Assembly: GCA_964360785.1 (NCBI GenBank)
Contig: CAYHXX010000003.1
Span: 22,911 to 86,910, forward strand
DNA from: an uncultured Gammaproteobacteria bacterium
GTDB taxonomy: Bacteria > Patescibacteriota > Microgenomatia > Woykebacterales > RBG-16-39-9b
DNA: 64,000 nt
Direction: 5' to 3'
Of this stretch, positions 15,456 to 57,872 are shown one piece after another; within the stretch, counting starts at the first letter, position 1; the number at the start of each line of letters is the position of its first letter. The translations under genes were made by a program, and so were the position numbers. The notes under the pieces are model-generated. The model saw only the letters and a program-made list of their open reading frames with translations. It was not told where the DNA came from and did no database searches.

Positions 15456-15457
15456 GG

Positions 15458-15478
15458 TGACAAGGTCCGTCCTTGTCA
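15458..15478. repeat. REP-like palindrome (variant): tGACAAGG-TCCGT-CCTTGTCA.
   Basis: 7-bp stem GACAAGG/CCTTGTC and a 5-nt loop. It sits between the c-like gene stop and atpF. Confidence 0.6.
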
Positions 15479-15491
15479 AAGGTAAGAATTT

Positions 15492-16094: not shown

Positions 16095-16618
16095 AACCTG
16101 AATTTTCGATCTTTGCTACTGGGATTACGGATACAAAAGTTCTCTATCGTTTGGTCGATAAACTAAACGCGATTAACAAAGAACTTTATCACAACCAGGA
16201 AGGCAGCATTGCGCAGAAAGCCAAGAGCATCAGCCCGTCACTGATCGCGGTTTTTAACTATTTAGAACAAAAAGGTTTGGAGCCATCAGGGGATGAAGCA
16301 CAAAAAGCGTATATCGCAGAAATTATCAGTTATCTCAAGAGTTTGCTAGTTGTGAGAATTACAATGGCTTTTGAACCTGACGATACCTTTAGCACTAAGA
16401 TCAACGAAGTGATAAGTAGCCTTGCTGGGCGTAAAATTGTGCTGGATATTGCAGTCAACCACCACATTGTTGCCGGCATTACTCTCGAGTACAACGGTAA
16501 GTTCTCTGATTATAGCTATGAGGCTAGAACTGATACCTTTTTGAAGGAAAGACTCGGAGGTTTTTTCGCGGTAGCTTCAAATGAAGTTAGAAATCAACCA
16601 GAGCAGTTAGTAAACTAA
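16091..16618 (+). CDS. atpH: F-type ATP synthase subunit delta (OSCP-like).
   Basis: 175 aa. The C-terminal ...VNHHIVAGITLEYNGKFSDYSYEARTDTFLKERL resembles the delta C-terminus. Gene order is b-delta-alpha. Confidence 0.55.
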   Translation: MKPEFSIFATGITDTKVLYRLVDKLNAINKELYHNQEGSIAQKAKSISPSLIAVFNYLEQKGLEPSGDEAQKAYIAEIISYLKSLLVVRITMAFEPDDTFSTKINEVISSLAGRKIVLDIAVNHHIVAGITLEYNGKFSDYSYEARTDTFLKERLGGFFAVASNEVRNQPEQLVN

Positions 16619-16619
16619 A

Positions 16620-18107: not shown

Positions 18108-18110
18108 TTT

Positions 18111-18983: not shown

Positions 18984-19036
18984 TACGACAACACCTACGG
19001 GTTTTAACCAGTTGTTCTTGCGTCTAAGAAGACTAA

Positions 19037-20473
<1,437 letters not shown>

Positions 20474-22740: not shown

Positions 22741-22754
22741 ACTAAATACAAGCT

Positions 22755-27853: not shown

Positions 27854-27856
27854 GAT

Positions 27857-33390: not shown

Positions 33391-34050
33391 ATGCCAATTC
33401 GCAAAACTAGTTTTTTTGAAAATGGTTTTTATCATGTCTACAACCGCGGCGTCGAGAAGCGGGAGATTTTTCTTGACGAAAAAGATTACCAATCTTTTGT
33501 CGGTATTTTAAAAACTTATCTTTCAGAAGATATATCAAACAATAGTGAAATTACGTTGCAAGGACGGGCCTTGCAGGGCAAACGAATCAGAAAACATAGC
33601 CTTGGCGAGGAAGTGAGTCTGGTTGCATATTGCTTGATGCCGAATCACTTTCATCTATTGCTGCAGCAAAGATTCTCAACGTCGATTACAAATTTTATGC
33701 GTCGGGTTCTAACAGCCTACTCGATGTATTTCAATGATCGTTACGAACGGGTAGGGAGTTTATTCCAGGGCCGCTTCCAAGCCAAAGATATTTCCAATGA
33801 CGAATACCTATTGCATTTAACTCGTTACATTCACCGCAACCCAGTCGAAGCAAAAATAGTTAAAATTCAAAACTTAGAAAAATTTAAGTGGTCCTCTTAC
33901 CAAAATTATCTGGGGTTAAAGGAGGTCGTTTGGGTGAAGTCAAAAGCAATTCTTGATTACTTTTCGTCAATAGAGAGCAACAAAGACTACAGGAGTTTTG
34001 TTGAATTCGAGTCGGAAGAAAATCTTCCAGAAAGTTTACAAATTGACTAA
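33391..34050 (+). CDS. IS200/IS605-family HUH tyrosine transposase of REP-associated (RAYT-like) type.
   Basis: YHVYNRG...LMPNHFHLLLQQ (HUH motif)...LTRYIHRNPVEAKIV (catalytic Tyr). Single copy, bracketed by REP palindromes at 33355 and 34057, with one more inside at 33556. Confidence 0.75.
   Translation: MPIRKTSFFENGFYHVYNRGVEKREIFLDEKDYQSFVGILKTYLSEDISNNSEITLQGRALQGKRIRKHSLGEEVSLVAYCLMPNHFHLLLQQRFSTSITNFMRRVLTAYSMYFNDRYERVGSLFQGRFQAKDISNDEYLLHLTRYIHRNPVEAKIVKIQNLEKFKWSSYQNYLGLKEVVWVKSKAILDYFSSIESNKDYRSFVEFESEENLPESLQID
33556..33576. repeat. REP-like palindrome in inverted orientation (TTGCAAGG-ACGGG-CCTTGCAG), inside the RAYT CDS and in frame.
   Basis: Encodes ..LQGRALQG.. within an insertion of about 20 aa between the YHV and HUH motifs. 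Confidence 0.55.
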
Positions 34051-34056
34051 AATTAG

Positions 34057-34133
34057 CCTGCAAGGCCCTGTCTGCCGACCAGTCTGCCGACCAGTCTGCC
34101 GACAGGCAAGACAGGCACGACCGTCCTTGCAAG
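34057..34133. repeat. Composite REP: the stem arms CCTGCAAGGCCC and CCGTCCTTGCAAG are separated by a 52-nt insert containing 3 x 12-nt tandem repeats (cTGTCTGCCGAC / CAGTCTGCCGAC x2).
   Basis: Tandem units at 34068-34103. Located 3' of the RAYT gene. Confidence 0.6.
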
Positions 34134-37600: not shown

Positions 37601-40600
37601 TGTTCATCCATTCCGCCGATGTGCCAACCGGGTCAAGTTGAAGCGCGGTTTTAGCGTCGCTGGCATAGGTAACAGCGCCGTTGCGCCCGCTGATACCAAC
37701 ATCCGCGCCAGCCCGATCGGTGGCGTCATAATTCCACATACGATCATTGACGAAGTCAAAGGCATACAAACCGCCGGAAGCAGTACCTTTTGCGCCGACA
37801 TAAATCACGCCGTTTAGTGCCGTGACACTGGACGGATCATTATTGGTATCTGCTCCTAGGGCCCAGCCGGCGGCATTCTGGCTAAACTTCATCCACATAT
37901 CATTGGTGGCCGCATCAAAAATATAAAGCGAGTCGGTGGTGACGATAAGGATGGCTTTACGGGGAAAAGCTTTGGCGTAACAACGGTCGTCGGTGGCGAT
38001 GACACAGGGATCACTAGGACCGTCATCAAGCGTTTCGTTGTACCAAGAAAGCTGGTCGGTAGTGGCCCAATCTATCCAACGGCCGCCATCACTGTCGGCA
38101 GTTGTATCATAGACATAAATGTCTTTGATTCCGGTTAGAGCAGTGATATCTGAATACCCTTGAGAGACTATTTCTCCGTAAACTGAGGCATTACCACGAT
38201 TGGTTGGGGAGCCGATCTGGAGTAGCCTCTCTGTGGAGCCAGTTATTGATATTGTCCCAACCCCAACTCGGCCGTCACCGTCAATTATAAATGGCGTTGT
38301 GTCGCTTGCGACATCATCAATACGGAGAGCCATGTTACCAGTTCCGGTAGCGCGATGATCAACATAAAGACTGGTGTTGGTATTGGCCGTACCAGTATTG
38401 CTCAGTTTGAGAAGGCTACCGGTATTGGCGGCGTTGGATCCAGAGAGAACCAGTTCGGTGAGGGAACCAGTGAAAGCAATTGCCGAAGAGCTGACCGTTA
38501 TACCTTTTCCTGAGGTCAAGCCGTTGGTAGTAATTGCTAGAGCAGTTTCACCGTCAATAGCGTTGGCAGTGAGGTTGATACCATTGGCTGCATTTGAAGC
38601 TTGTACTAAATCAAGTCCTAGGACAGCAGCGGTGGTGTTGTTTTGGTTGATCTGTAGTGTAAAAGCGCTGCTTGTTCCAGCTGAAGTTGGATTGGTGATA
38701 ACGATAGAGTCTTGGGTGGCATCAAGGGTGATCAATTGATCGCCAGCTGCACCAGCGTCATAAGTTTGCTGTAAGGTACCGCCACCACCGCCACAACCAG
38801 TACAAGAAGACACTGTTAAAGCAGCTGAAGCAAAGCTAAGAGTGGTAGCATTCGAGGTGAGATTTAGGCTCCCATTTCTGTAAAGATTAACGCTATTGGC
38901 ATCAGTTCCCCATTGGATTCCAGCAGAAACTGTAGTGGACGAAAAAGTCCCATCAAGACAATCAAAACAAAGCCCAATGTTTTTCGTACCACCGGCAGTA
39001 ATATTATCAATATGGACCCCGTAGGCATTGGTAATAACATCAGCAGTACCTTTAATTAAATCAGCAGCTTCGAGTGCAACACCATCTTGAAGGGTAATCG
39101 CTCCGCCAGTCGAGTCGTCGACTTTTACTGTCCCTGATATTCCGAAAGCTATCCCAGTCGGCGAGTTGATATTGACTATTGGTTGGGAGTAAATTCCAAC
39201 ACAGCCTCCAAAAAGGGCAATCGGACAAGTTGCAGAGCTATTGTTGACGTTACCAATTGCTTGGAAGATGCTTTGTCCTGCGGAGAATAGCAGAGTGCCA
39301 TTACCTGCAGCAGTATTGCCGATAAATTTAATAAAGCCATCGGTGTCGTTTTCCACCTTTTCGCCGTTGGTGAAGGTGATGTCTCCACTAGCCCCAGTGA
39401 AAGTAAGACCAGTGGTTCCACCAATGACAAAGTTGTCATCGGTTTTGAGAGTATCACTGGCAGAGCGGTAGAGAGTTACCAGATTGGTATCAGTCCCAAA
39501 CTGGATCCCTGCGGCCACCGTGCTCGAAGCCCAAGCACCATCACAGTCAAAACAGAGGGCAACATTAGTGTTGGCTCCTGAGACATCAGCAAGGTAGAGA
39601 CCGATGGCTGTGGTGGTTCCATTGGTGTCTCCAGTCGCGTCAAAGTAGCCTCCGTAGGTATTTCTTGTTCCTGTGCCGGTACTGGTATTAGAAGCAGATG
39701 AATAAATGCCGTAGAGGTTAAATACGACTGCGCCACCGGCGGTATCGATTCCTGTTTTACTGACGGTGTTATAAATTCCGTAATCATTTTGTGGGCTAAA
39801 GACTGAGGCAAACGCCGTACTTGAGGTCCAGGAATTGTAAACACCGTAGCTACCACCGCCATTATTATCGGTAGACGTGAAGGAATTATCAATACCTCTT
39901 ACATCATCAGTTGCGCTAGTGGTATTAACATCCAGCACGCCAGCACCGCCGACTGCTCCTGTGCCATTGATAAGGACTGTACTAGCAAAGGTAGTGGCAT
40001 CCTGAACATCGAGAATATCCGCACCGTTAATGATGACATCATTACCAGCTCCAGCTGAAGCGATGGTGATCGCACCCGTTGCAGTAATATCACCGACATC
40101 GGTGATTGTATTGGCATTGAAATCTAGGGTTGTATCGGAGAAGGAGTATTCAGTTGCATCATTTTCTCGTAAGTTAATCAAGCCGCCATCGGTGACGTTA
40201 ATCATCAAATCATTTGTACTCGAAGCATAGATTGATCTGACAGCTGAAGGGGCAGATGCATCAGCAGTTGTGAAGGTTAGGCTGTCGTTGGTGGTGTCAT
40301 CGACTTCTCCGGAGAACCCTCCAGGACAAGCTCCCCAAACTGGAACACCGCTAGCCCCAGCTCCAGAAAGTAGACACTGGCTGCCGGTTTCAGTTTCTAC
40401 GACTCGAGTAACGACTCCGCCAGTTGTTGTGTACAAAACCGCGTTAGCGTCAGTGATCATCGAAGAGAAGGTAATAGCTCCAGAGGAGGTGAGTGCTGTT
40501 GCGCCAGTGATTGCCCCTGCGCCAGTGATATCGATGGTTGGGGTGTTAAGAAAATTACTGTAACCATTACCAAAAGCACCGGTATTGGTGATACTGATTG

Positions 40601-42194
40601 CATCAGTAAGCAATAGATCGGTATCGGCGTTATCAATTGCGATTCCGACATCCAAACCATTACCACCAGCAGCCGCTGCTTGTTGAATAAACAAACCTTG
40701 GGTAGCGAAGTCGGAAGCATTTGGAGTCGCAATCAGTGAAATTACATTAACAGTACCCGCAAGATCTGAGGTCATAGCAATATTTTCTGTTCCGGCGAGA
40801 GTGAAGTTGGTATCGGTATTAAAGGTAGGAGTTCCGTTAACCGTAATAGTATCGCCGGTAGCGTTTCCAATTCCGATTGTTGTTGAGTTTACAGTTAAGG
40901 CTGTACCGTCATCGACGGTCAGTGTACCAGAAGAAAAACTGTCAGAAGTATCGCTTCGCAAGAATGAAAGAGAGTCAATTCCGTCCAAGCTGTCAGAGTT
41001 GAGAGCGTAACTTGAAGAAGCGATTCTTTGACGAGGAGCTGCTTCAGCATCAGCACCAATTTTTACCCCCAAGTAGAGCGCTGAGTTATCTGCAAAAAGG
41101 GTTGAGGGGATAGCGGTGTCGGCTTGTCCAGTATCGCCAAGTTGTACTGAAAAGATACCGTTTGCATCTGGTGTGACCGACCAAGTTTTGGATTCCCAAA
41201 GACAGGTGTTGGCACAAGGGTCTCCTGTGTCCCCACTGGTAGAGGTGTAAATTCGAAAAACGATGTTGGTAGCAATTGTGGTTGGGTTACCGCTTAGGTC
41301 AGTCAACCTTCCTTGGAAGGAAAGAATTCGGGGTGGGGTCGCAGCAAGGACTAGACCATCTTGGATCTCATTTTTGAGGTTGGTGATATCAAGGGGTTTG
41401 GGAGCAAAGAAACCCTCAAAAAGCAGTAATCCAACGACCAAAATCGCCCCAGTGCTGGCTGCCCAGTTGACGTAGTCGCTCATTGGGTGTCCTCGATAGG
41501 CGTGCCACCATCGGGGTTTGCTAAACTTAATTCGTTGCCAGAAATGCCCAACATTTGCAAGGACGGGCCTTGTAATGGTGACGGGGTTGGTTTCGTAGAC
41601 AATATCTTCCTTGTGGAGGTTAAAGAATGATTTCAAACTATAAAGTTGACTTTGGATTGTGCTCTCTGTTGTTCCCTTTGATCGCAAGTAAGATATATAT
41701 CTTTCTATATCATTGTGACTCACTTTGTCGATATTCTTCTGTGATAAAGTTTCCGCGCCACTCTGATTTGGTTTTAACCAAGCGAAGAATGAAGCTACTC
41801 CTGCGGTATAAAGCTTGGTTGTGCTCGAGGCTGCCCCCTCGGATTTAATATGTTCGGAGTAAACTTCAATCGGTGAAGAAAGGGTATTGTCTGATATCTT
41901 TTGAGGTATTTGAGTAATAGTAACTAGGTTATAACCTTTGGAGTTTAGCCAACTGCAAAATGATTTGAGACTGTAACCAAATCTCCGCAGCGTTGACTCT
42001 GAAAACTGTCCCCCTAGAGTTGCAACGGCTTGGTTTAGAGAATCCTGCCCGATCTCCAAATCTGCCGGAAGTTTCTCAAGAATTGTCTTCAAATCAGAGG
42101 TGTAGTTCTTGATTGTTGAACGCGAAGAATTAGTTGAAGATAAGTAATCTATGAAAGATGGTAGAAGACTGTGTAGTTCTTTTGAAGTTAGCAT
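34662..42194 (-). CDS. Giant surface protein, 2,510 aa as the open frame. The N-terminal 237 aa carry two integrase SAM-like (core-binding) repeats. Met238 (41483) is followed by a TM helix and a Thr/Gly/Ser/Asn-rich ectodomain ending in the conserved C-terminal module (...FTWFILNQQ).
   Basis: Open frame from 42194 to 34662. N-terminal STIKNYTSDLKTILEKL and STIQSQLYSLKSFFNL (SAM-like). MSDYVNWAASTGAILVVGLLLF TM. A 500-nt block at 38990-39480 is about 85% identical to 52000-52510 in the 50888..54199 gene. C-terminal GDYLTSSGIPGVAMKAKKAGFVIGMALEDF. Confidence 0.7.
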   Translation of the reverse strand: MLTSKELHSLLPSFIDYLSSTNSSRSTIKNYTSDLKTILEKLPADLEIGQDSLNQAVATLGGQFSESTLRRFGYSLKSFCSWLNSKGYNLVTITQIPQKISDNTLSSPIEVYSEHIKSEGAASSTTKLYTAGVASFFAWLKPNQSGAETLSQKNIDKVSHNDIERYISYLRSKGTTESTIQSQLYSLKSFFNLHKEDIVYETNPVTITRPVLANVGHFWQRIKFSKPRWWHAYRGHPMSDYVNWAASTGAILVVGLLLFEGFFAPKPLDITNLKNEIQDGLVLAATPPRILSFQGRLTDLSGNPTTIATNIVFRIYTSTSGDTGDPCANTCLWESKTWSVTPDANGIFSVQLGDTGQADTAIPSTLFADNSALYLGVKIGADAEAAPRQRIASSSYALNSDSLDGIDSLSFLRSDTSDSFSSGTLTVDDGTALTVNSTTIGIGNATGDTITVNGTPTFNTDTNFTLAGTENIAMTSDLAGTVNVISLIATPNASDFATQGLFIQQAAAAGGNGLDVGIAIDNADTDLLLTDAISITNTGAFGNGYSNFLNTPTIDITGAGAITGATALTSSGAITFSSMITDANAVLYTTTGGVVTRVVETETGSQCLLSGAGASGVPVWGACPGGFSGEVDDTTNDSLTFTTADASAPSAVRSIYASSTNDLMINVTDGGLINLRENDATEYSFSDTTLDFNANTITDVGDITATGAITIASAGAGNDVIINGADILDVQDATTFASTVLINGTGAVGGAGVLDVNTTSATDDVRGIDNSFTSTDNNGGGSYGVYNSWTSSTAFASVFSPQNDYGIYNTVSKTGIDTAGGAVVFNLYGIYSSASNTSTGTGTRNTYGGYFDATGDTNGTTTAIGLYLADVSGANTNVALCFDCDGAWASSTVAAGIQFGTDTNLVTLYRSASDTLKTDDNFVIGGTTGLTFTGASGDITFTNGEKVENDTDGFIKFIGNTAAGNGTLLFSAGQSIFQAIGNVNNSSATCPIALFGGCVGIYSQPIVNINSPTGIAFGISGTVKVDDSTGGAITLQDGVALEAADLIKGTADVITNAYGVHIDNITAGGTKNIGLCFDCLDGTFSSTTVSAGIQWGTDANSVNLYRNGSLNLTSNATTLSFASAALTVSSCTGCGGGGGTLQQTYDAGAAGDQLITLDATQDSIVITNPTSAGTSSAFTLQINQNNTTAAVLGLDLVQASNAANGINLTANAIDGETALAITTNGLTSGKGITVSSSAIAFTGSLTELVLSGSNAANTGSLLKLSNTGTANTNTSLYVDHRATGTGNMALRIDDVASDTTPFIIDGDGRVGVGTISITGSTERLLQIGSPTNRGNASVYGEIVSQGYSDITALTGIKDIYVYDTTADSDGGRWIDWATTDQLSWYNETLDDGPSDPCVIATDDRCYAKAFPRKAILIVTTDSLYIFDAATNDMWMKFSQNAAGWALGADTNNDPSSVTALNGVIYVGAKGTASGGLYAFDFVNDRMWNYDATDRAGADVGISGRNGAVTYASDAKTALQLDPVGTSAEWMNINDVAAVSVNSSLSAITIGGTTNVIPGQGLSFVALATDSGVTIINLAAQKLLQYSDVLADNYEAVALTKSGKMYALNSTTDQAEKWDAIDSDKTSEVAGTYTSRWTSAVGPALAVGAVAIQTDAPDALEVVERGSLAQDNMDLIYVGHSLGLTEIHDNATVTNGWSKFYNTTRQTMLMPNAIDAALPLDETSGTLAQDASFNNTDMSYKGTFTLGASGVRGKGVTLGGAGYLCSDANADATCDNDASFNSTTTAFNISMWFKHSTTAPAAPQVLYEKCYNTTPAAVVGCVVAYMTTTGTIVGAIDATTTFTQFTTYDITSTSSLAYNDDQWHFLLLARDNVGDLNVYIDGQILNSTNATPQAGTVDAASQVTSIGASCAGAANCATGANFWDGSIDDFTFSSGATTVSQLLSAPARRLYNDARPLVAKRVITVTDATTVSSSTIGDSGETWIPNEFSGMIVTLTGGTGVGQTRRVVSNTTTTLTVSSNFATTPDTTTDFEVDPEALYGASDTVTAVGVTAESPLGEARQMCIGTNDTADGGGVTCYNHQAGPNLIADLFHSNSAQTDDYAVEWTGTNYDDIRSIDLSGRALLIGTEAHIYAETRDVRLGQGLDYLANQLFNIRGELIQDGIILTGSQGLEVGFTGGADLAEYYYSDIGLDAGTLVSVDTDKTGEFITATDKPYQNEMLGIVSTEPGLTLGQNKPGGHPVALSGRVPLRVTTNNGADPIKAGDYLTSSGIPGVAMKAKKAGFVIGMALEDFPPRPGLGVEGGQENSSENPVATGSATLQGSENQAKTSDEPTEDGKVLVFVNRTWFVPSPEQILETTTATTVTLDQNGDLIAPLSAGAKFVWENSTGQAVAWVSDTGEALFSKVTALVGDFGKLVFGEAVVKKEAKTAGEAIFAADATEVFIESDKVTEESLINLTASTKTNGLSLYIKEKKVGEGFVVALERSSGDQPDQATASATTAIKFTWFILNQQ
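41555..41576. repeat. REP-like palindrome (inverted on +, canonical on the - strand), in frame inside the 5' region of the giant ORF 34662..42194.
   Basis: TTTGCAAGGACGGGCCTTGTAA. It separates the SAM-like N-terminal region from Met238 and the TM helix. Confidence 0.55.
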
Positions 42195-42389
42195 GGGCAG
42201 GTATGCTAATAATTCGATCTAAATCGTATAACTTCTTGATGATTCAGGAAGTTATACATAAATTTTAGTTCAGAAAAGGTAGTATTGTCAAGCATGATTG
42301 AGTAAGAAAGTTACTGTATTTAGCTTGAAGCTATGCTAGGTTTGACACCGAAGAAAAGAGGAATGAAATTAACAAGTCGAATTTGCTTG

Positions 42390-42464: not shown

Positions 42465-43430
42465 ATGTTTAACAAAAATCTAAAGGTTGTGGTTGCAGGT
42501 CTTTTAGTTGCGGTTTTGACAGTTGTTCCCTTTATTATCAAACCAACTAAAGTTGAGTCGGCGACCGCACTAAAAATAGTCGCTCTAGGTGATTCAATAA
42601 CAGGATTGGGTGGATTTATTACAAAGTACAAAAACTACTTAATTGGTGATTTAAAGAACTATAGTACTGTTACCAATCTGGGAGTAAATAATTCAACCAG
42701 TTCTGATCTGGTGCAATCAATAACAAACAACCAAACTGTTCGAAGTAGTGTAGCGAGTGCAGACTTGGTAACTGTTGAAATCGGAATTAATGACTTCTTT
42801 CAGGCCAGGGGTAGATATTTATACGGTGTTTGCGGCGGAGTAGATAATCAAGACTGTTTGCGAAGTACGGTAACTAATTTTGAGATAAATTGGAATACAA
42901 TAATTGGCCAAGTAAAAGGTTTAACTGATTCGAGCACAGCCATCAGGGCTCTTGATATTTATTACTCAGTAGTTGTTGCAGATCAAGGTACTGGGTCGCC
43001 GGAAAATAGTACTTTTGTTGTACTCAACTCTTATCTTGAACAGATGAACGCTCATATCCACGCTTCGGCTGTTGCCAACTCTATACCAGTTGCACAGGTA
43101 CATCGTGCTTTTAACGGTCTCACAGGAGCCGAGGATCCTATCGCCAAGGGTTATATTCTTCTTGATGCAGTACATCCGACCGATCTGGGTTCACGGGTTA
43201 TTGCCACGGAACTTCGAGTACTTGGGTATGCACCATTAAAGCAACCCTGTCCGGATGTAAATGGTGATACCAGGATAAACTCGACTGATCAATTGATAGT
43301 CGCTCAGAGGTTTGGGGCAACTATCGGTACATCAAAATACCTTGAGTCGGCGGATGTAAATGGTGATGGGAAAATAAACTCAGGTGATATGTTGATAATC
43401 GCCCAACAGTTTAACAAAAAATGCCTTTAA
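42465..43430 (+). CDS. Secreted SGNH/GDSL-family hydrolase with a C-terminal type-I dockerin module.
   Basis: Signal peptide. GDSL block IVALGDSITGLGGF. DAVHPT catalytic His block. Two Ca-binding dockerin repeats DVNGDTRINSTDQLIVAQRF and DVNGDGKINSGDMLIIAQQF bracketed by Cys. Confidence 0.7.
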   Translation: MFNKNLKVVVAGLLVAVLTVVPFIIKPTKVESATALKIVALGDSITGLGGFITKYKNYLIGDLKNYSTVTNLGVNNSTSSDLVQSITNNQTVRSSVASADLVTVEIGINDFFQARGRYLYGVCGGVDNQDCLRSTVTNFEINWNTIIGQVKGLTDSSTAIRALDIYYSVVVADQGTGSPENSTFVVLNSYLEQMNAHIHASAVANSIPVAQVHRAFNGLTGAEDPIAKGYILLDAVHPTDLGSRVIATELRVLGYAPLKQPCPDVNGDTRINSTDQLIVAQRFGATIGTSKYLESADVNGDGKINSGDMLIIAQQFNKKCL

Positions 43431-43501
43431 TCTATACATTGAATAAATGTAAGTATTATTAGAGGTTGTTATTTGAAACCACAGGATGTAAATTAGAGTT
43501 A

Positions 43502-44497
43502 ATGGTTTTAATTAAAATTGTTCATAGACACTTTCTAATAAAGGGTTTTTTAGTCAGCTTTTTTATACTATTATCGATGACAGTTTTAACCCTTTTAGCG
43601 GTTAAAGCTTCAGCAAACAACCCTCTAAAAGTTACAGCCCTTGGAGATTCTATTACATCCCTTGGTGGTTTTATCAGTATCTATAATAGATATGTAACCA
43701 CAGATTTGAAGTATGTGACCCAAACTAACAATTTGGGTGTTGCTGGTTGGACTTCAGGTGCATTAGCCAATGCCTTAACCGATAACTCAACTATGCGTAC
43801 TTCGATTGTGGATTCCAAAATCGTTCTGGTTGAAATCGGAATTAATGACTTCTTCAACTACAGAGGTGCTTATCAAAGCGGTACTTGTGGTGGTGTAGAT
43901 AATCAGGATTGTTTACGGTCCATGGTGGCTAATTTTAAAACTAATTGGGACAGAATTTTTACCCAAATTAATACACTAGTTGATCCGACAAAAACTGCAA
44001 TCAGAACTCAAGACATTTACTATTCAGTCGCAGCGGCAGACCAGCTTCCAACTGCCCCTTACAACAACTCTTTTCCAGTTCTAAATTTTTACCTGCAGCA
44101 GATGAATGCTTATATCCATTCTTCTTCACAGGTACGTAATATTCCAGTGGCTAATGTTCATCTAGCTTACAACGGGATAAACGGTGACGAAAATCCGGCT
44201 GCCAAGGGTTATCTTTTACCTGACGCGATCCATCCAACCACTTTGGGATCTACAGTTATTGCCGACGAACTGCGTAAACTTGGTTATGCACCGTTGACAC
44301 TGGTTTGTGCTGACGTGAACGGTGATGGGAAAGTCAATTCTACAGACATGTTGTTAGTTTATAAGAACTTTAACACTAACAGTAGTCAGACTAACTTTAA
44401 TCCCACCTATGACGTGAATGGTGATGGTAAAGTCAACTCAATTGATATATTGCTTATGTCGCAACAGTTTAACCGTCGTTGTGTTATTTCTCCTTAA
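43502..44497 (+). CDS. Secreted SGNH/GDSL-family hydrolase with a C-terminal dockerin module (paralogue). The track's start is TTG at 43466.
   Basis: VTALGDSITSLGGF, DAIHPT, DVNGDGKVNSTDMLLVYKNF, DVNGDGKVNSIDILLMSQQF. The start is uncertain (ATG 43502, preferred, or upstream TTG). Confidence 0.65.
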   Translation: MVLIKIVHRHFLIKGFLVSFFILLSMTVLTLLAVKASANNPLKVTALGDSITSLGGFISIYNRYVTTDLKYVTQTNNLGVAGWTSGALANALTDNSTMRTSIVDSKIVLVEIGINDFFNYRGAYQSGTCGGVDNQDCLRSMVANFKTNWDRIFTQINTLVDPTKTAIRTQDIYYSVAAADQLPTAPYNNSFPVLNFYLQQMNAYIHSSSQVRNIPVANVHLAYNGINGDENPAAKGYLLPDAIHPTTLGSTVIADELRKLGYAPLTLVCADVNGDGKVNSTDMLLVYKNFNTNSSQTNFNPTYDVNGDGKVNSIDILLMSQQFNRRCVISP

Positions 44498-50887: not shown

Positions 50888-53800
50888 TTACTCTTGGTTG
50901 ACGATTAGCCAGTTGAACTCGACTTTTTTGCTGCTTATGTTTCCCGGGAAGCGTTTGATGCCGACGACAAAACTTTTTCCGGCTATTTTGGACTTAATGT
51001 AAAGCACACCGTCTGGTTCAGAATCTGGAGTCAGGTTAATTAATGAATCTTCCTTAACTTTATCACTTTGTATAAGCACCTCATTTTGATCTGCTACGAG
51101 CTCACCAGTCCCCGCGCTTTGAGAACCTTTTTTAACTGCAATCTCTCCAAAAACAAGCTTCTGGAAGCTGGCAAAAACCGCTGTCACTTTGCTAAATATT
51201 GCCTCGCCAGATTTAGAAATAAAGGCACTCAGATAACTTGTTTCTGAATCTAAGTTTTGGGTAGGTGCTTCTCTAAGATTTACGTAAAAACTGTTGTCAA
51301 CAAAGACCAAGATTTTCCCTATCCCTAAAGCGCTGTAAGAGCCCAAGGCCTTCCCAATAGTCGGTCCGGTAGATGTAGCTTTCATCGCTACTCCCGGGAT
51401 TGAAGAAGATGTCAAATAATCGCCAGGTTTAATTGGTCCTTTTTCAGTAGAAACCTTTACCGGTACACGTCCGATTAAGGCAATTGGTTTGGGATTATTC
51501 AGGTAAGGTTTAGCGGTTTCACCCAATATTTCTCCACTTGGGTTTGTGGACACTATTCCAAGTAATGTATTTTGGTAGGAAGTAGAGGATTTAACTACGT
51601 GGGCAATAGAAGTTTTACCACCGTAATAATGGGTCTCGTAAGCTTCACCGTCGAGTACAACGAGAGTGCCTTCGTCTGAATCATCATTAACACCGTAGTA
51701 CTCAGCTAAATCGGCTTGTGTTCCACCACAATCTCCAATTTGCTGAACCCCTGTCGCAGCATCAGCGCCGTTGTGGCAGAGGCGCTGGGCAGTACCACCG
51801 ACTTGAGCAGAAAGATTAATAGAGGTTGTAGTTGTATTTGATTGAATCAAAACCGTACCAGCCCCATCGTCAATTGTTGCTTGGGCTGCTGTAGCGCCGT
51901 TGCTTCGATAAAGCCTTAGGTTTTGGGTCGTGGTCGCGTCATTACCCCATTGGATTCCTCCTGAGACCGTCGTTGAAGAATGGGTTCCATCAAGGCAATC
52001 AAAACAAAGCCCAATGTTTTTTGTACCACCTGCAGTGATATTATCGATATGAACCCCGTATGCATTAGTGATAACATCAGCGGCACCTTTGGTTAAATCA
52101 GCAGCTAGGATTGCGACACCATCCTGAAGAGTGATCGCTCCGGCAGTCGAATCATCAACCTTTACTGTACCTGATATTCCGTATGCCGCACCTGTTGGGG
52201 AGTTGATGTTTACTGTTGGTAATGAGTAAATACCTACACAACCTCCGAAGGATACAATCGGACAGGTTGCAAAGCTGTTGTTGACATTACCAATGGCTTG
52301 GAAGACGCTTTGTCCAGCTGTGTAAATTAAAGTACCACTACCGGCAGCGGCGTTGCCAATAAGTTTTATAAAGCCATTCGTGTCGTTTTCCACCTTTTCC
52401 CCATTGGTAAAAGTAATGTCCCCACCAGCGCCAGTGAAGGTGAGACCGGTAGTTCCACCAACGACAAAGTTATCATCGGTCTTCAGGGTATCGGCAGCAG
52501 ATCGGTAAAGGTTAGCATCGCCCCCAAGAGTTAAGGTAGCAGCTAAATTTAAACCACCACCAGCAGTAAAATCTGTTCCAGCGTTTCCAATATTCAAAGC
52601 GAGGTTAGTATTAAAATCAACATTTCCAGCCATAGTTCCACCTGACAAAAGTAAGTAGTTGGAGACGGTTATTGTGTTTGGTATATCTGCATCCAGTAAT
52701 CCAGTTACTCCAGCTACGGTTACACTTCCAATAAGCGTACCACCACCGAGTGGGAGATAGTTGGAAGCTGTAATGTTGTCAGCGACATTAGCATCGCCCA
52801 AACTTCCAGTAATCGAACTAAATAACCCAAGAGCTAAAATCACACTACCATTCCCAAGTGTTCCCGAATTTATCGCGGTTGCATCAATACTGCTTGTACT
52901 GGCAATTGTAATTGTGTTGGGAATGTCCCCATCTGCTAAACCGGTAACACCAGCTACAGTCAGAGACCCGCTTAAAATACCACCGGATAACGGTAGATAA
53001 TTTGAGGCAGTAATGGTATCGGCAATGTTGGCATCCCCAAGAATTCCAGTGATTGATCCAAAAATTCCTAATGCCAGAGTGACCCCACCGTTTCCTAAAG
53101 TCCCAGAAGTAATGTTAGTCGCATCTATACTGGTTAAGTTAATCCCTGAAAGAGCAGGTAGCTGAGCTGATCCATTAAGTTGAACTAGTTGGTTTGCACC
53201 ATTAAATACATTTCCCTGTTGAGTAACTGAGGTATCAATATTCAAAGTAACCAAACCAGAAGATCCGCCGCCAGAAAGTCCAGTACCGGCGACAACTGCG
53301 GTGATTGTTCCACTGCCCGAACTTGAAGCAGTTGCGGAGATTGTGATTGCATTGGTCAGCGTGTTCTTCTTGAGGATAATATTACTTCCGGCAATTAGGT
53401 CAATTGAGCCGGCTAAGTCGGGTTTATCCTTAATATACTCCCAGCCAATCTCTGCCTTTATCTCACCCGGAATTTCTAAATTACCATCGTTGTTTAGAGT
53501 AACAAAACTGTTCTCCTTATTATTAATTTGATACCCATTGATAGACTTTGTTGTAATCGAATCAACATCAATTTTATTGGTAAAAGTTAATTTGTCCCCG
53601 TCTTTTTGGATATAGTCAGAGATGTTAGTTAGTCCGAGTGGATCAAGAGCGTCGCTTGTTTTAATCACCTTAAGTATTCCCAGGTTAAGGTATGAGAGTG
53701 GGGAGACAATTGCTTTCGCAACTCTCACAAAACCATTCTCATTTTTTGTACTTGTTCCGAGGACTTTTTGATTAGTTTGAACTTGATTAGCAAAAAGAGA

Positions 53801-54199
53801 AGTTAGTAACAGAATTGCTACCAAGACAGTTAAACCAATCACAACTCTCGGTATAAAGTTTGATTTCTGTTCTGGGATTAGAGTAATTTCTCCCTCTGTA
53901 TTTTGTGCTCGTTTAACTTTGATTTTAGGCTGGTTTTGTAACAACACTTTTTGCTCAGCGATGCTTTTGCCCTTGGCACGTTTCTTCTCGATAGCAACTA
54001 TCTGCTCGACAACTTCGAGTTTAAAAGCTGCGCTTGGAGGTTCATTGTTGAAAGACTTACGCTTAGCGTGGGGAAGTAGGCCGAACTTAATATAGTAGCG
54101 GATTCGGTTTTCTGGGTTCGAATCGCCAAAATTAACACCCCTGGCTTGGGCCAATTTTATTATTTTTGATATCGGATAAAGATCGTTGTTAGTTCTCAT
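50888..54199 (-). CDS. Large surface protein (1,103 aa): N-terminal MerR-like HTH, TM helix, tail-fibre-like Gly/Thr/Asn beta-repeats, and the conserved C-terminal module ending FNWLIVNQE.
   Basis: N-terminal ISKIIKLAQARGVNFGDSNPENRIRYYIKFGLLPHAKRKSFN...IVAIEKKRAKGKSIAEQ (MerR-like). TM IGLTVLVAILLLTSLF. Repeats GTLGNGGVTLALGIFGSITG...ITASNYLPLSGG. A block shared with 34662..42194. Confidence 0.75.
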   Translation of the reverse strand: MRTNNDLYPISKIIKLAQARGVNFGDSNPENRIRYYIKFGLLPHAKRKSFNNEPPSAAFKLEVVEQIVAIEKKRAKGKSIAEQKVLLQNQPKIKVKRAQNTEGEITLIPEQKSNFIPRVVIGLTVLVAILLLTSLFANQVQTNQKVLGTSTKNENGFVRVAKAIVSPLSYLNLGILKVIKTSDALDPLGLTNISDYIQKDGDKLTFTNKIDVDSITTKSINGYQINNKENSFVTLNNDGNLEIPGEIKAEIGWEYIKDKPDLAGSIDLIAGSNIILKKNTLTNAITISATASSSGSGTITAVVAGTGLSGGGSSGLVTLNIDTSVTQQGNVFNGANQLVQLNGSAQLPALSGINLTSIDATNITSGTLGNGGVTLALGIFGSITGILGDANIADTITASNYLPLSGGILSGSLTVAGVTGLADGDIPNTITIASTSSIDATAINSGTLGNGSVILALGLFSSITGSLGDANVADNITASNYLPLGGGTLIGSVTVAGVTGLLDADIPNTITVSNYLLLSGGTMAGNVDFNTNLALNIGNAGTDFTAGGGLNLAATLTLGGDANLYRSAADTLKTDDNFVVGGTTGLTFTGAGGDITFTNGEKVENDTNGFIKLIGNAAAGSGTLIYTAGQSVFQAIGNVNNSFATCPIVSFGGCVGIYSLPTVNINSPTGAAYGISGTVKVDDSTAGAITLQDGVAILAADLTKGAADVITNAYGVHIDNITAGGTKNIGLCFDCLDGTHSSTTVSGGIQWGNDATTTQNLRLYRSNGATAAQATIDDGAGTVLIQSNTTTTSINLSAQVGGTAQRLCHNGADAATGVQQIGDCGGTQADLAEYYGVNDDSDEGTLVVLDGEAYETHYYGGKTSIAHVVKSSTSYQNTLLGIVSTNPSGEILGETAKPYLNNPKPIALIGRVPVKVSTEKGPIKPGDYLTSSSIPGVAMKATSTGPTIGKALGSYSALGIGKILVFVDNSFYVNLREAPTQNLDSETSYLSAFISKSGEAIFSKVTAVFASFQKLVFGEIAVKKGSQSAGTGELVADQNEVLIQSDKVKEDSLINLTPDSEPDGVLYIKSKIAGKSFVVGIKRFPGNISSKKVEFNWLIVNQE
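52560..53110. repeat. Intragenic tandem repeats of about 240 bp (an 80-aa unit, ...GTLGNG.V.LALG.F.SITG.LGDAN.AD.ITASNYLPL.GG...) in the 50888..54199 gene. They are shared with 56340-56600 of the 54865..57819 gene.
   Basis: Two or more adjacent near-identical nucleotide units, with a paralogous block in the neighbouring giant gene. Confidence 0.65.
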
Positions 54200-54424
54200 T
54201 GGGCAGAATTTGAACTAAAGGTTATTTTTGAAGAACTTAATTACTCTTATTTTATCTCGCGACAAGTAGACTAGTCAAATAATAATGAATGTCCATTTGA
54301 GCCTGCTGCGAGAAAAATTGAAGGTAGCCTGAAGATTAATAAAGATCAAATTAAGCATAAATTTAGCCTTGTTTTCGATTTTTAAAAACAGATTTCCACT
54401 GCAAGTTTAAAATAACTTTACCAC

Positions 54425-54455
54425 TTGATTTAGTATTACCAAAAAGTGTTATCAT
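54425..54455 (+). promoter_or_regulatory. Candidate promoter TTGATT-19-TGtTATCAT with SD GGAG for the HTH gene at 54480.
   Basis: Extended -10. GGAG lies 9 nt before the ATG. Confidence 0.3.
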
Positions 54456-54479
54456 TTAGTTAGCTTGGAGTAGTAAACG

Positions 54480-54854
54480 ATGAAAGTAAAACTAGACCTA
54501 GATAATCGAAGGGAAATATTAAGAAGAATCGAGGAAGGCGAGTCAATTTACTCTTTAGCCAAGGAGTACAAAGTTTCACGGGTTTTAATTTACCGGCTAA
54601 GGAAAAAAGCAAGGGTCTCGCTGAACTTAATTGCTCCAGGAGCAAGGAAACCGCGCAAACAGAAAATTCCGATTGAAGTTGAAGCAGCAATAATCAACCT
54701 AATTCTTAGTTACCCAGAGCTTTCAAGCCATAAGATAGCTCAGCTGATCAAAGGAAATCTGCCTCTAGGAGCTCATGGAGTCTACAATTTGATGAAGCGG
54801 TACAAGTTAAATAGATACGACGCACGGGCAAAAGCGGCAGAGAAGTTGTTTTGA
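54480..54854 (+). CDS. Small stand-alone HTH protein resembling a transposase N-terminal DNA-binding domain (IS630/Tc1-like).
   Basis: RREILRRIEEGESIYSLAKEYKVSRVLIYRLRKK (HTH) plus ...ELSSHKIAQLI (second HTH-like). There is no catalytic domain downstream. Confidence 0.4.
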   Translation: MKVKLDLDNRREILRRIEEGESIYSLAKEYKVSRVLIYRLRKKARVSLNLIAPGARKPRKQKIPIEVEAAIINLILSYPELSSHKIAQLIKGNLPLGAHGVYNLMKRYKLNRYDARAKAAEKLF

Positions 54855-54864
54855 AACAGGACAA

Positions 54865-57819
54865 TTAATTGACAATAAACCAGTCGAAGCTAATATCGTG
54901 AGTAGTTGGTTGCTCAACCTCAACCATAAAGTAGTTACCTGCTTGTTTTTCCGTAACTACCAGAGTTTGCCCTGAGGTGAAGTTTAGCGCAGTGACAAAA
55001 ACCCGCGAAGTACTTTTCACCAAGTTACTTGGAACAATCACTTTTGTTGTTCCGGAGACAATTTTAGCTGTCCCCACAGAGCCCCCAGAAGCGTCTACGG
55101 AAAGTTCAGTGATCTTTAGTTTTGTTGTCTCTACACTTTGGGCAAAGAGGGTCTTAGAAATTGTTAAGTTGCCTTCTAAGTTTATATCTCCAATAATTTC
55201 AATCTTTCCCGAGGCGCCCAATTTGATTTGATTCTTGCCAAGCACTATCTCTGTAGCAGAGATTGAAGAGTTAGTGGTTCCGGAGATTGGCTTAGTGTAG
55301 TAACTTGAATTCACCAGGACCAAGACTTTTCCAACCCCAGTTTGGTTGAAACTTTGCAAAGACTTACCGATAACCGGACCGCTCTCGGTTGCTTTCATCG
55401 CAACCCCAGGGGTTGAAGAGGATGTTAAATAGTCACCAACTTCAACCGGTCCGTTTTCAGTCGAGACTTTGGTTGGGACCCGTCCGGTGAGTGCCAGTTT
55501 CGCGATGTGTTGCGGGTTGCCGAGAGCGTCGGGGTTATCAATAAAAGTTGGGTCAGTACTTTCAATTCCGATTAAAGTTTTTTGGTAAGGTAAGCTAGAT
55601 TTTTTAACCTTTAAATCAGTGGCCGTAGTATCAATTGCCAAGACATCACCAGCCTCTAACTTCTCACTAGCCACTGCTCGTTCGGCAATATCAAAAGTTC
55701 CAGTGCGGTTCCAGTAGCTACAAGTCCCACCGGTTCCTTTCCAATAAATCCGATTATTTGTTGAATCATAACCAAAATCACCGTTGGTTAAAGAAGCACA
55801 ACTGGGAGCGGCTTGAGCAGTATTCAGGTTAAATCCAACTGCAGAGGTAGAAGCAGTTGAAGCGCTAAGTTTTGCACCAAAATTGGAAGCAGCGTTGAAA
55901 ATGTTAGTACCAGTTGTTCCTGATTGATAAATCGGGTAGATATTAGTCCCAACTGTAATGTCTTGTATTTCAATTCCATAGCTATTGGCAGGAGTCCCTC
56001 CAAGGATAGAGGGTGAAACAATCGATACTCCGACAAGAGTAGCGACTGAACCAGATCCAGCCCCAGTATTTACAGTTGCTTGTATTGCGGCTAGAGTTGT
56101 TGCACCCCCACTTCCGGAGTAGGTTGAGATCGAATCAAGTCCAATCAAACTAATACTTGTATCTGCACCACTGTAGATAGGTAAAGTACGAATCCCAAAA
56201 GTTAATGGGTTGCCAACTCCGTTGAAACTACTGGTTGGTGCTACTAATAAACCAGAATAGATGACATCTGCGGATTGAGATTCGGAGAAGTACGCAATCG
56301 CCGATGAAGTAATTGCAGCAGTACTACCAAAAGCGCCATGACCGTTGGCATCGAGATCCGTTGCTAGATTTAAACCACCACCGGCAGTAAAATCTGTACC
56401 GGCGTTGCCGATATTGATAGCTAGATTGTTATTGAAGTTAGCATTTCCAGCCATAGTTCCACCAGTTAATGGCAGATAGTTTGACGCTGTTATTGTGTCA
56501 GCCACGTTTCCATCGGTCAGACTTCCGGTTATGGAACCAAAACTCCCCAACGCTAAAGTAACCGATCCGTTACCCAAGGTTCCGGAATTAAGAGCAGTGG
56601 CCGAAACACTACTGGTATTGGCAATTGTAATTGAGTCTGAAACCGCACCATCGCCAACACAACTAGTACAAGTAAAAGTTCCAAGCACACTCAGGGTAGT
56701 TCCGGCATCTAAAGTTAAAGTTCCGGAGGTAAAATTGTCCGTAGTATCAGAACGTAAGAATTGAGCTGAATCGATTGAATCAAGCAAATCAGCGTTAACC
56801 CCAGAACCAGCTAAATTGAAAGTAATCGAATTAGTTGAATCGTTGGAAGTGATCGTAACTCCAGCTCCGGCGATAAAATCAATATCGCCAGCATTATTTT
56901 TTATCCCATCAATACTTGAAATTGCTTCATTGGCAAGAGAAAGAGCAAAAGCATTGCCGATTCTTGTGATATTTACCCCATTTCCTGTAAGGCTCAAGCC
57001 TGCAAGACCAGTACTCACTGAAGTATCGGCAATGTCTTTTATAGTCTCAGCTGTCCAATAAAGATCAGCACTACAGCTTAATAATTGGGCAATATCAAGA
57101 GTCAGAACACAAGCTTCGGTTGCTCCGGAGAGATTGGGAAAGGTAATTTCTTTACTCAAAATCTTTTTTACATCAATACTCTCGACGGTTAAACTATCAT
57201 TGGTGATTAGGGAATTCTCCAAGGAAATAGGAGCTGAAGGGTCAGAGATTATAGTTTTTTGAATAGTAACTTCTTGTTTTTCGTTAATGGTGATGACTTT
57301 GCCGACATTGGTCAAACCCAGAGGATCAGTCGAGCTAGCATTTTCATCCTTAGCCTCTCGGATCAGGGCAGCTAATACATTACCAACAGGTTTTGCCACG
57401 ACATTATTGGTCACAGAATTGTTGAAAGTTATTGTTAGGGTAATAGCACCGAGGAAAATTAGGAAAAAAAGTCCCGATAGCATCAAAAGCGATTTGCTGG
57501 CTTTTTGGTAGGTGTCAACTAAGCTACGTAGATCAGTTGGTTTTCTGAGAAATTCTTGACGCTGTTCTTCAATAACCTGTTTGATTTGGGAGAGGCTCTT
57601 GCCTTCTTTAAGCATTTTGTCGATCGAAACGATACGATCAACTGCTGTAGCTGGAAAATCGCCATTGAGAAGTTTTGGTACAAGACCATTCTGAACATAG
57701 GTCTCGATTGTTTGTTGGTGGTTGTCACCGAGGTTTACATCATGGTCAAGGCAGCGGCCAATAAGTTGTTCGATATTTATGAGCTGATCTCGTTGAAACG
57801 GGTTTTCGTCAAGAAACAT
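54865..57819 (-). CDS. Large surface protein (984 aa), paralogue: divergent MerR-like N-terminal HTH, TM, Gly/Thr/Asn repeats including YLPLTGGTMAGN, and the conserved C-terminal module.
   Basis: N-terminal ...TIETYVQNGLVPKLL...IVSIDKMLKEGKSLSQIKQVI. TM LLMLSGLFFLIFLGAITLTI. Repeat GTLGNGSVTLALGSFGSITGSLTDGNVADTITASNYLPLTGGTMAGN. C-terminal GDYLTSSSTPGVAMKATESGPVIGKSL...FDWFIVN. Confidence 0.75.
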   Translation of the reverse strand: MFLDENPFQRDQLINIEQLIGRCLDHDVNLGDNHQQTIETYVQNGLVPKLLNGDFPATAVDRIVSIDKMLKEGKSLSQIKQVIEEQRQEFLRKPTDLRSLVDTYQKASKSLLMLSGLFFLIFLGAITLTITFNNSVTNNVVAKPVGNVLAALIREAKDENASSTDPLGLTNVGKVITINEKQEVTIQKTIISDPSAPISLENSLITNDSLTVESIDVKKILSKEITFPNLSGATEACVLTLDIAQLLSCSADLYWTAETIKDIADTSVSTGLAGLSLTGNGVNITRIGNAFALSLANEAISSIDGIKNNAGDIDFIAGAGVTITSNDSTNSITFNLAGSGVNADLLDSIDSAQFLRSDTTDNFTSGTLTLDAGTTLSVLGTFTCTSCVGDGAVSDSITIANTSSVSATALNSGTLGNGSVTLALGSFGSITGSLTDGNVADTITASNYLPLTGGTMAGNANFNNNLAINIGNAGTDFTAGGGLNLATDLDANGHGAFGSTAAITSSAIAYFSESQSADVIYSGLLVAPTSSFNGVGNPLTFGIRTLPIYSGADTSISLIGLDSISTYSGSGGATTLAAIQATVNTGAGSGSVATLVGVSIVSPSILGGTPANSYGIEIQDITVGTNIYPIYQSGTTGTNIFNAASNFGAKLSASTASTSAVGFNLNTAQAAPSCASLTNGDFGYDSTNNRIYWKGTGGTCSYWNRTGTFDIAERAVASEKLEAGDVLAIDTTATDLKVKKSSLPYQKTLIGIESTDPTFIDNPDALGNPQHIAKLALTGRVPTKVSTENGPVEVGDYLTSSSTPGVAMKATESGPVIGKSLQSFNQTGVGKVLVLVNSSYYTKPISGTTNSSISATEIVLGKNQIKLGASGKIEIIGDINLEGNLTISKTLFAQSVETTKLKITELSVDASGGSVGTAKIVSGTTKVIVPSNLVKSTSRVFVTALNFTSGQTLVVTEKQAGNYFMVEVEQPTTHDISFDWFIVN

Positions 57820-57872
57820 AGGCAGGGTATAGAAACATTATAGGGAACTACTAAATAGATGTCTAATCTAGC

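Follow-up and report, generated by a model that had tools for sequence, protein, structure and literature searches.

Three giant genes with a common layout

The DNA analysed here – the window – is a stretch of 64,000 nucleotides from contig CAYHXX010000003.1 (positions 22,911 to 86,910 of the forward strand), and its ORF listing contains four very long open reading frames (ORFs), A, B, C and D, all on the minus strand. Our concern is with the proteins encoded by A, B and C, which belong to one family: each begins with a head related to the DNA-binding domain of MerR-type regulators, continues through a single transmembrane (TM) helix and ends in a large ectodomain. The principal features are these.

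2..14425, minus strand: gene A, family member, 4808 codons without a stop (more than 4808 aa), running off the start of the window
14156..14425, minus strand: head of A (aa 1-90), MerR/TnrA-type winged helix-turn-helix (HTH), recognition helix NRLRYYIKIGLLP
13865..13921, minus strand: TM helix of A (aa 169-187), Kyte-Doolittle score 2.48
50888..54199, minus strand: gene B, family member, 1103 aa, identical to cluster representative P0003
53930..54199, minus strand: head of B (aa 1-90), MerR/TnrA-type winged HTH, NRIRYYIKFGLLP, AlphaFold2 (AF2) predicted local distance difference test (pLDDT) 91.1
53789..53845, minus strand: TM helix of B (aa 119-137), Kyte-Doolittle score 2.76
54865..57819, minus strand: gene C, family member, 984 aa, degenerate head
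57550..57819, minus strand: head of C, MerR-type fold by sequence, MerR_1 E=5.9e-4, R-x-x-R-Y replaced by QTIETY
57430..57486, minus strand: TM helix of C (aa 112-130), Kyte-Doolittle score 2.39

A preliminary description of the window had attributed to these three genes a shared N-terminal architecture – a head of about 90 residues, one helix and a big ectodomain – and this is what we find at the positions it gave. The Kyte-Doolittle scale marks exactly one strong hydrophobic helix in each of A, B and C, as had been claimed; in A a linker of 78 aa separates the head from this helix, beyond which the giant ectodomain begins. Over the first ~90 residues the heads of A and C align with that of B at 24-36% identity. 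The part that follows the helix is acidic and, in keeping with the ectodomain rich in Thr, Gly, Asn and Ser that had been proposed, these four residues make up 46% of it in A, 38% in B and 39% in C. The claim of MerR-like motifs was sound for A (NRLRYYIKIGLLP) and B (NRIRYYIKFGLLP), but in C the motif has diverged (QQTIETYVQNGLVP) and the DNA-contact residues have been lost. The C head has in addition a shortened wing, and its net charge is acidic.

The head is a winged helix-turn-helix of the MerR superfamily

Taken singly, the heads are poorly recognised. All single-head Pfam matches fall below the gathering score, the best being that of the C head to MerR_1 (20.3 versus 21.6 bits); the A head reaches E=0.002 against Pfam MerR, and an NCBIfam scan of the heads gives a weak CadR-PbrR match only. 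Scans of the full proteins against Pfam, NCBIfam and PHROGs returned nothing above threshold for heads or ectodomains. The Pfam search that the preliminary description called for succeeds with the family and not with the window heads taken singly: MerR_1 is matched by 33 of 44 family heads (best E=1.9e-10), and the head of representative P0104 scores 36 bits, above the cut-off. When a profile built from 44 family heads was used against PDB sequences the best match was 4ua1 MerR (E=4.7e-7), with GlnR at 3.7e-4 and further matches to the MerR-family regulator 3gpv, TnrA, NmlR and CadR.

Structure prediction, to which the preliminary description had looked for a decision, gave the MerR fold. The AF2 model of B aa 1-90 (pLDDT 91.1, predicted template modelling score 0.80) has the order b1-a1-a2-b2-b3-a3-a4, with elements E7-9, H10-19, H29-38, E46-48, E56-60, H62-75 and H80-89. 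Compared with the PDB using Foldseek, its top 25 matches are all MerR-family DNA-binding domains (TM scores 0.55-0.67), drawn from GlnR, CvkR, TnrA, CueR, PbrR, SoxR, NmlR, CarH and MerR. The family profile, the Pfam matches across the family, the AF2 model and the Foldseek matches together establish that the head is homologous to the MerR winged HTH; given the sub-threshold Pfam scores of single sequences, the assignment is solid at the level of the family only. Two members bear the IMG label 'DNA-binding transcriptional MerR regulator'.

The closest relatives of the head are GlnR and TnrA, the minimal MerR branch of Bacillus, which share the winged-HTH fold and supply top matches in both sequence and structure. 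The family motif N-R-L-R-Y-Y aligns with R-Q-I-R-Y-Y of GlnR. In TnrA/GlnR the bases of the DNA are contacted by Arg28/26, Arg31/29 and Tyr32/30, and either substitution, R28A or R31A, is enough to prevent binding; without the MerR coiled coil these proteins dimerise weakly, or by induction, and bind a 17-bp palindrome (PMC4335299). The corresponding R-x-x-R-Y residues are kept in A (NRLRYY) and B (NRIRYY) and lost in C (QTIETY), a loss common to a C subfamily that includes P0068, P0084, P0107 and P0144. With neither DNA-contact residues nor the DNA site described below, C is probably a non-binding derivative.

The family shares with TnrA/GlnR the absence of a coiled-coil helix and of an effector pocket. 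In place of the a5 coiled coil and effector region of classical MerR regulators (MerR, CueR, SoxR, BmrR) – which differ also in their long-spacer promoters – a linker 14-223 aa long (median 44) leads from the head to the TM helix; the PDB and Pfam alignments of the heads stop at a4, and a Pfam scan found no MerR-DNA-bind or effector-domain match for the heads. There are differences from TnrA/GlnR as well. Those proteins are soluble and use a C-terminal tail to sense glutamine synthetase, where the family has linker, TM helix and ectodomain; they possess an N-terminal alpha-1' dimerisation helix, whereas the B head model has no such helix and begins with a strand followed by a1; and their operator is TGTNA-N7-TNACA, as against the candidate site TTTCCCG-N3-CGGGAAA, also of 17 bp, that we describe below. 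A five-residue insertion lies between alpha-1 and alpha-2, and the Pfam alignments begin at model positions 13-16. BldC of Streptomyces is likewise a MerR-like domain without coiled coil or effector domain, and forms cooperative multimers on DNA (PMC5859096), but it is a soluble protein of 68 aa that binds direct repeats head-to-tail. The heads have no Trans_reg_C match, and are not of the OmpR/PhoB type.

Over 95 head codons A differs from its relative in locus L004 by 37 synonymous and 30 non-synonymous changes; the head is under purifying selection and is therefore translated. A further conserved feature, YCTGCC(C/T)(A), abuts the ATG of all four giant genes (CCCTGCCCA, TTCTGCCCA, CCCTGCCT, ACCTGCCC).

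14426..14434, 54200..54208, 57820..57827 and 42195..42202: YCTGCC motif immediately before the ATG of A, B, C and D, in that order

It is not a Shine-Dalgarno sequence, was found before none of 26 other window genes checked, and also precedes family genes in L003, L006, L013, L014, L015, L028, L030 and L032.

A family of the Patescibacteria

Recovery of the family required an exhaustive hidden Markov model (HMM) search, which was started from a 5-sequence profile; word-indexed protein search was nearly blind to it (2, 9 and 1 hits). The HMM search returned 319 cluster representatives at E<=1e-3, 180 of them at E<=1e-10, and a locus search with a five-sequence alignment, one genome being taken per species, found 31 genomic loci. 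The combination of MerR head and TM helix that we were led to seek in other genomes is thus present in nearly all of the 319 representatives and in the 31 loci. Layout was analysed in 151 of the 319 representatives that were retrieved: nearly all of those of at least 160 aa have a single hydrophobic helix soon after the head, and an N-terminal head followed by one TM helix is seen in the 31 loci also. About nine members carry two tandem heads ahead of the TM helix, an arrangement that amounts to a covalent dimer.

Great size had been taken as a defining trait of these proteins, and this proved mistaken. Family lengths fall into three groups – ~220 aa, ~600-900 aa and 1,000-3,674 aa – and the ~220-aa members, with an ectodomain of ~95 aa, have the same head, TM helix and C-terminal domain as the giants.

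The head had been placed inside the cell, and the sequences support this. No signal peptide lies ahead of the head, lysine and arginine number 3.25 in the 15 aa before the TM helix compared to 1.83 after it across 93 family proteins, and the N-terminal segment has a mean net charge of +8.4. From these features we infer a cytoplasmic head in a type-II, N-in/C-out topology.

Among the loci found the family is almost confined to the candidate phyla radiation (CPR)/Patescibacteria. The hosts are CPR-type metagenome-assembled genomes (MAGs) – Woykebacteria, WWE3, Nealsonbacteria and 'Saccharibacteria' – some of which carry Nanoarchaeia or Gammaproteobacteria record labels; the sole exception is a soluble 126-aa protein of Paenibacillus. 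Viral contigs yielded no relatives, and a phage origin was rejected on this ground. Full-text literature searches found no account of the family or of a MerR-TM architecture, in line with the initial impression that the architecture was unfamiliar: we know of no earlier description of a single-pass membrane protein with a MerR-type head, and in particular none of phage-fibre-like giants so equipped.

A palindrome at family-gene promoters

A palindrome, TTTCCCGTSACGGGAAA, recurs in the intergenic regions upstream of A-type genes, often with two or more copies in a region. In the window it lies just downstream of the promoter of A.

14578..14607, minus strand: promoter of A, sigma-70-type TTGACA-18-AATAAT, 11/12, with TG extension
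14551..14567, no strand assigned: operator-like site of A, TTTCCCGTCACAGCAAA, 14/16 of TTTCCCGTSACGGGAAA, starting 10 nt after the -10 box
14540..14546, minus strand: second TTTCCCG half-site of A, a direct repeat 21 nt downstream of the first

Counting was done in the 31 loci, which had been found by protein similarity alone, with a match at 13 or more of 16 positions scored as a site. A site occurs within 350 bp upstream of the start in 17 of the 31, A included. The remaining ~267 kb hold 13 further matches of which only two are unrelated to the family; each of the other 11 is located in one of these upstream intergenic regions, immediately downstream of a ~220-aa member, or within the ORF of a family gene. 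A metagenome scan for the exact 17-mer gave 120 loci: in 13 a family head starts 24-601 bp downstream, in three the site stands directly after a ~220-aa member, and in four it stands 32-38 nt upstream of a Wzy_C/TPR gene with no adjoining family gene. Most of the 120 were discarded as chance or coding matches, such as rpsP 'LSRHGK'. In 26 promoters scoring at least 9/12 the median distance from the -10 box to the start of the downstream site is 15 nt (range 10-23), and the site-bearing promoters have spacers of 17-18 bp, unlike the over-long 19-20-bp spacer of classical MerR operators.

The second type of gene associated with the palindrome encodes a multi-pass membrane protein of ~700-760 aa that combines Wzy_C (O-antigen ligase family) with TPR domains. 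The promoter region of this gene contains the palindrome both beside family genes and away from them (L017, L019-L022, L063, L093, L139, L042, L143 and L117). We speculate that this protein may glycosylate Ser/Thr-rich surface proteins.

In L028, L030 and L032, where another residue stands in place of the recognition helix's first arginine (HTLRYY/NTLRYY), the site reads nTTGCCGTGACGGTAAn instead of TTTCCCGTGACGGGAAA. Protein and site may here have varied together; the cases are few and probably related.

Ectodomain, terminal domain and the gene with a different head

Three features define the distal part of these proteins.

50891..51829, minus strand: C-terminal module of B (aa 791-1103), common to C, D and many family giants
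50897..51136, minus strand: extreme C-terminal beta domain of B, ~75-80 aa (aa 1022-1101), pLDDT 82-95
34662..42194, minus strand: gene D, 2510 aa, with the same C-terminal module as B and C and a different head

The C-terminal module, of ~300 aa, is common to B, C and D with 38% and 31% identity. Its AF2 model is all-beta, with a pLDDT of 60 overall and 82-95 for the last ~75 residues, and in B it appears to include a beta domain like phage decoration proteins and tailspike C-terminal domains. The apparent likeness is to phage tailspike and appendage C-terminal domains (phi29 gp12, K1 lyase) and to capsid decoration proteins, where the pLDDT of the family model is 55-78; in sequence the ectodomain has no Pfam or PHROGs match to such proteins other than a weak one to a tail-fibre PHROG, and a PDB sequence search with the module gave chance matches to HisF only. 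The idea of a tail-fibre-like ectodomain hence gains from an all-beta model with an apparently phage-like domain, and is held back by the medium quality of that model.

The extreme C-terminal domain is matched in 37 of the 151 representatives, about 21 of them ~220-aa members; for these short members and a two-headed member of 394 aa the matches have E 1e-17 to 1e-6. It is the only ectodomain element of the giants to be found in the ~220-aa members; the ~600-900-aa class has different ectodomains. Its presence in the smallest members indicates that the core of this part of the family is head, TM helix and small outer domain. The ancestral form, on this evidence, would be ToxR-like – a head, one TM helix and an outer domain of ~95 aa – and the giants would have arisen by insertion of phage-fibre-like modules between the TM helix and the terminal domain.

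Gene D begins with two Phage_int_SAM (tyrosine-recombinase core-binding) domains, at aa 13-86 and 113-193, followed by a TM helix at about aa 245-263; it contains no recombinase catalytic domain. The same layout is seen in L042 (2772..6944, minus strand, 1390 aa), where the palindrome and a Wzy_C/TPR gene come next. This type of surface protein therefore also occurs with a DNA-binding head of another kind. Residues 530-765 of B (51905..52612) and 875-1106 of D (38877..39572) are 76% identical over ~235 aa, far above the rest of the two proteins, which suggests that cassettes move between paralogues and points to a recent exchange between two that bear different heads. A role in site-specific recombination, which Xis-like or integrase-core-binding-like heads, palindromes within ORFs and the B/D cassettes might have implied, is unlikely given the absence of a catalytic domain.

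A membrane-tethered regulator of surface-protein genes?

By layout the family appears to belong to a known kind of protein, the membrane-tethered one-component regulators. The reading we favour, and to which we give a probability of about one half, is that these proteins are ToxR-like regulators whose TnrA-like heads bind the palindrome and autoregulate surface-protein genes. Cytoplasmic heads would be held at the membrane and paired by oligomerisation of the TM helix and ectodomain, or because one chain carries two heads; with heads that, like TnrA, dimerise weakly, binding would come to depend on that oligomerisation. So paired, they would bind the 17-bp palindrome just downstream of the -10 box of family promoters and the same site at the promoter of the Wzy_C/TPR membrane protein. 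A site placed over the early transcribed region suggests that bound heads would repress. Production of surface protein would in this way respond to how much of it the envelope already contains, or to its state of assembly there, and the feedback would reach the putative glycosylation gene also. ToxR and CadC are precedents for binding DNA while tethered to the membrane (PMC10629549, PMC5430869), and in such small CPR cells we infer that the chromosome is close to the membrane throughout. The preliminary description had raised a link to transcription as one possibility; the conserved operator-like palindrome at the promoters of family genes lends it support of an indirect kind.

The comparison with ToxR-like receptors (ToxR, TcpP, CadC, PsaE, VtrA) is instructive. 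They too have an N-terminal winged HTH, one TM helix and an outer domain, in an orientation that for our family is predicted, and they bind DNA while staying in the membrane (PMC10629549, PMC5430869); their outer domain is similar in size to that of the ~220-aa members. They differ in that the head is of the OmpR/PhoB type and not MerR, the hosts are Proteobacteria, and the outer domain is a small sensor and never a fibre of thousands of residues. They also activate from upstream sites, whereas the family site overlaps the early transcribed region.

Several observations weigh against the regulatory reading. Head and palindrome are connected by their co-occurrence, and another factor could bind the palindrome. 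Within the window a good site (14/16) is present at A only: B has weak remnants, and a scan of the window found no site upstream of C or D. Two family ORFs each contain an exact copy of the palindrome (L015 6539..6555 and L070 14041..14057), the two being in different reading frames, one just past the TM helix and the other in mid-ectodomain; a simple operator model leaves these unexplained. The topology is a prediction from sequence, and the Foldseek E-values of the head are modest (>=6.5e-3), though the matches are uniform. The C-terminal module resembles trimeric phage proteins, a poor fit with a dyad-symmetric operator. Finally, the split repeat in L003 and L006 is terminator-like, with a 9-10-bp stem and a U-run.

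Among the alternatives the one that survives best, although we think it unlikely, is that the head is a structural tether between DNA and membrane which anchors the nucleoid, or a locus, beneath the surface fibres. Such a tether could serve chromosome organisation or DNA uptake at the site of host contact, with any effects on transcription being secondary. RacA of Bacillus subtilis provides a model, in that a MerR-like winged HTH links DNA to the envelope and anchors the chromosome to the pole via DivIVA (PMC4914108, PMC6593407), but RacA reaches the membrane through a coiled coil and DivIVA, has neither TM helix nor ectodomain, and binds GC-rich ram sites near the origin. The presence of several sites per locus and of sites within ORFs would fit, as would the competence genes nearby: ComEA/ComEC in the window, L023, L028, L030 and L032, and DprA/ComM in L019-21 and L027. 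However, that neighbourhood may only mirror the conserved gene order of small genomes, few sites occur beyond the promoters of the family in the DNA examined, and their position precisely 10-23 nt past the -10 box of the proteins' own promoters is typical of an operator.

Less probable is that the winged HTH has been co-opted for protein contacts, with the cytoskeleton, the divisome or a secretion ATPase as partner, and that the palindrome is the target of another regulator. RodZ is the example here of an HTH used for protein binding: it has a cytoplasmic HTH that binds MreB, one TM helix and an outer domain, although its HTH is of the Xre type, its outer domain is small, and, unlike the family, it is widespread in bacteria. 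The best argument for such a role comes from the C subfamily, in which C, P0068, P0084, P0107 and P0144 keep fold, TM helix and ectodomain having lost R-x-x-R-Y and the basic residues of the wing: the head has been retained without its DNA contacts. The D-type giants, with a quite different head on the same ectodomain, also suggest some generic cytoplasmic role. Yet most family members conserve the base-contact residues and a strongly basic N-terminal segment, and the tight association of a dyad site with the genes would have to be coincidence.

We are equally doubtful of a variant in which the head acts in cis during translation. It would leave the ribosome first and, with RNA polymerase still near the promoter, could attach to the operator that serves the gene being read, which lies at about +5 to +25 and 40-240 bp from the start codon; the TM helix would insert next, pinning gene, very long mRNA and translocon together for the minutes of fibre synthesis and export, and re-initiation would be blocked until the finished fibre oligomerised or was released. 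The MerR head and the tandem recombinase core-binding head would then be alternative solutions to one problem, and the family would serve in ultra-small cells specifically to couple gene position with transcription and secretion.

Less probable again is that the repeat is an RNA element – a hairpin or attenuator in the 5' leader – that controls the genes and is unrelated to the head, which could regulate other targets. The site does lie within the transcribed leader, a terminator-like hairpin follows it in the leader of A, the split copies of L003 and L006 carry the stem and U-run already mentioned, and some copies show extended complementarity, for example that of L063 (GGCAATTTCCCGTCACGGGAAATTGCC). 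But pairing is not maintained by compensatory change: across 24 collected sites 70.4% of cells are paired, below the mean of 72.9% in shuffled data, and almost every cell that deviates from the palindrome is unpaired (27 unpaired cells against one double change in seven core pairs), with the recurrent sense-strand variant CGAGAAA producing a C-A mismatch. An Rfam scan of the window found no match, the folding of the A leader is not unusual relative to shuffled sequence (z = -1.6), and in L063 and L093 the site precedes the -35 box of the gene that follows. Without covariation, an Rfam family or an unusually structured A leader, the hairpin interpretation was set aside and a protein-binding DNA site appears the better reading of the palindrome; in L003 and L006 an RNA role of the repeat is possible.

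An artefact – a separate small regulator gene joined to a surface-protein ORF through faulty sequencing or assembly, or a true start codon beyond the TM helix – is hardly credible: nothing specific speaks for it beyond the fact that giant MAG ORFs are sometimes chimeric, and against it stand the same in-frame layout in 319 representatives and 31 loci from independent assemblies and three times in the window, the purifying selection on the head, and the conserved YCTGCC directly before the head's ATG.

Patescibacteria make up a very large share of bacterial diversity, and their gene regulation and the surface structures by which they attach to hosts are almost uncharted. The family described here comprises hundreds of sequence clusters of envelope proteins, some encoded by the largest genes in their genomes, and offers a concrete and testable link between surface and chromosome, with a defined 17-bp candidate target at its own promoters and at those of Wzy_C-type (O-antigen-ligase/O-glycosyltransferase-like) genes. 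If membrane-tethered heads do bind this site they would be the first MerR-type regulators of that kind, and a simple circuit would inform the chromosome directly of the condition of the cell surface. The ~220-aa members offer a tractable system, and tests of the predicted regulon do not require cultivation of the organism. The main interest lies in the size of the family, its phylogenetic confinement, the candidate operator and the second type of DNA-binding head (D, L042) on the same ectodomain.

Genomic neighbourhood

The window is ordinary chromosomal DNA, encoding an F-type ATP synthase, leucyl-tRNA and arginyl-tRNA synthetases (LeuRS, ArgRS), ComEA/ComEC, sensor kinases and dockerin-bearing GDSL lipases. 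Family genes hold conserved positions across lineages, in three settings. In no fewer than 15 loci, of various CPR lineages, A-type genes are divergent from the F-type ATP synthase operon (window 14661..20473, plus strand); an A-type gene lies beside the ATP synthase in L001-L015, L025 and L026. The first two genes of the operon (264 aa and 200 aa) have no Pfam match, and no ORF of c-subunit size was seen between them. The second setting, beside LeuRS and the ComEC cluster, is that of B, C, L018, L023, L028-30 and L032; in the third the ~220-aa form lies between DprA/ComM and the Wzy_C+TPR membrane protein.

54480..54854, plus strand: IS630-type insertion sequence (IS) remnant between B and C, 124-aa ORF, HTH part only (HTH_7, HTH_Tnp_IS630)

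This remnant probably separated B and C, a tandem pair, and may have disturbed the upstream region of B.

Elsewhere in the window, 20518..24356 and 25595..29455 (plus strand) are two tandem copies of one gene pair, whose first member (~740-750 aa) combines fn3, CarboxypepD_reg and AhpC/TSA domains and whose second (~532 aa) has a double Cache domain; a CHASE4 protein and a PAS histidine kinase come after them. Short direct repeats (ggcagactggtc) at 34070..34130 adjoin an IS200-like Y1_Tnp transposase gene (33391..34050, plus strand). Two adjacent GDSL-lipase proteins are encoded at 42465..44497 (plus strand), each with a C-terminal type I dockerin, which is unusual outside cellulosome-producing bacteria.

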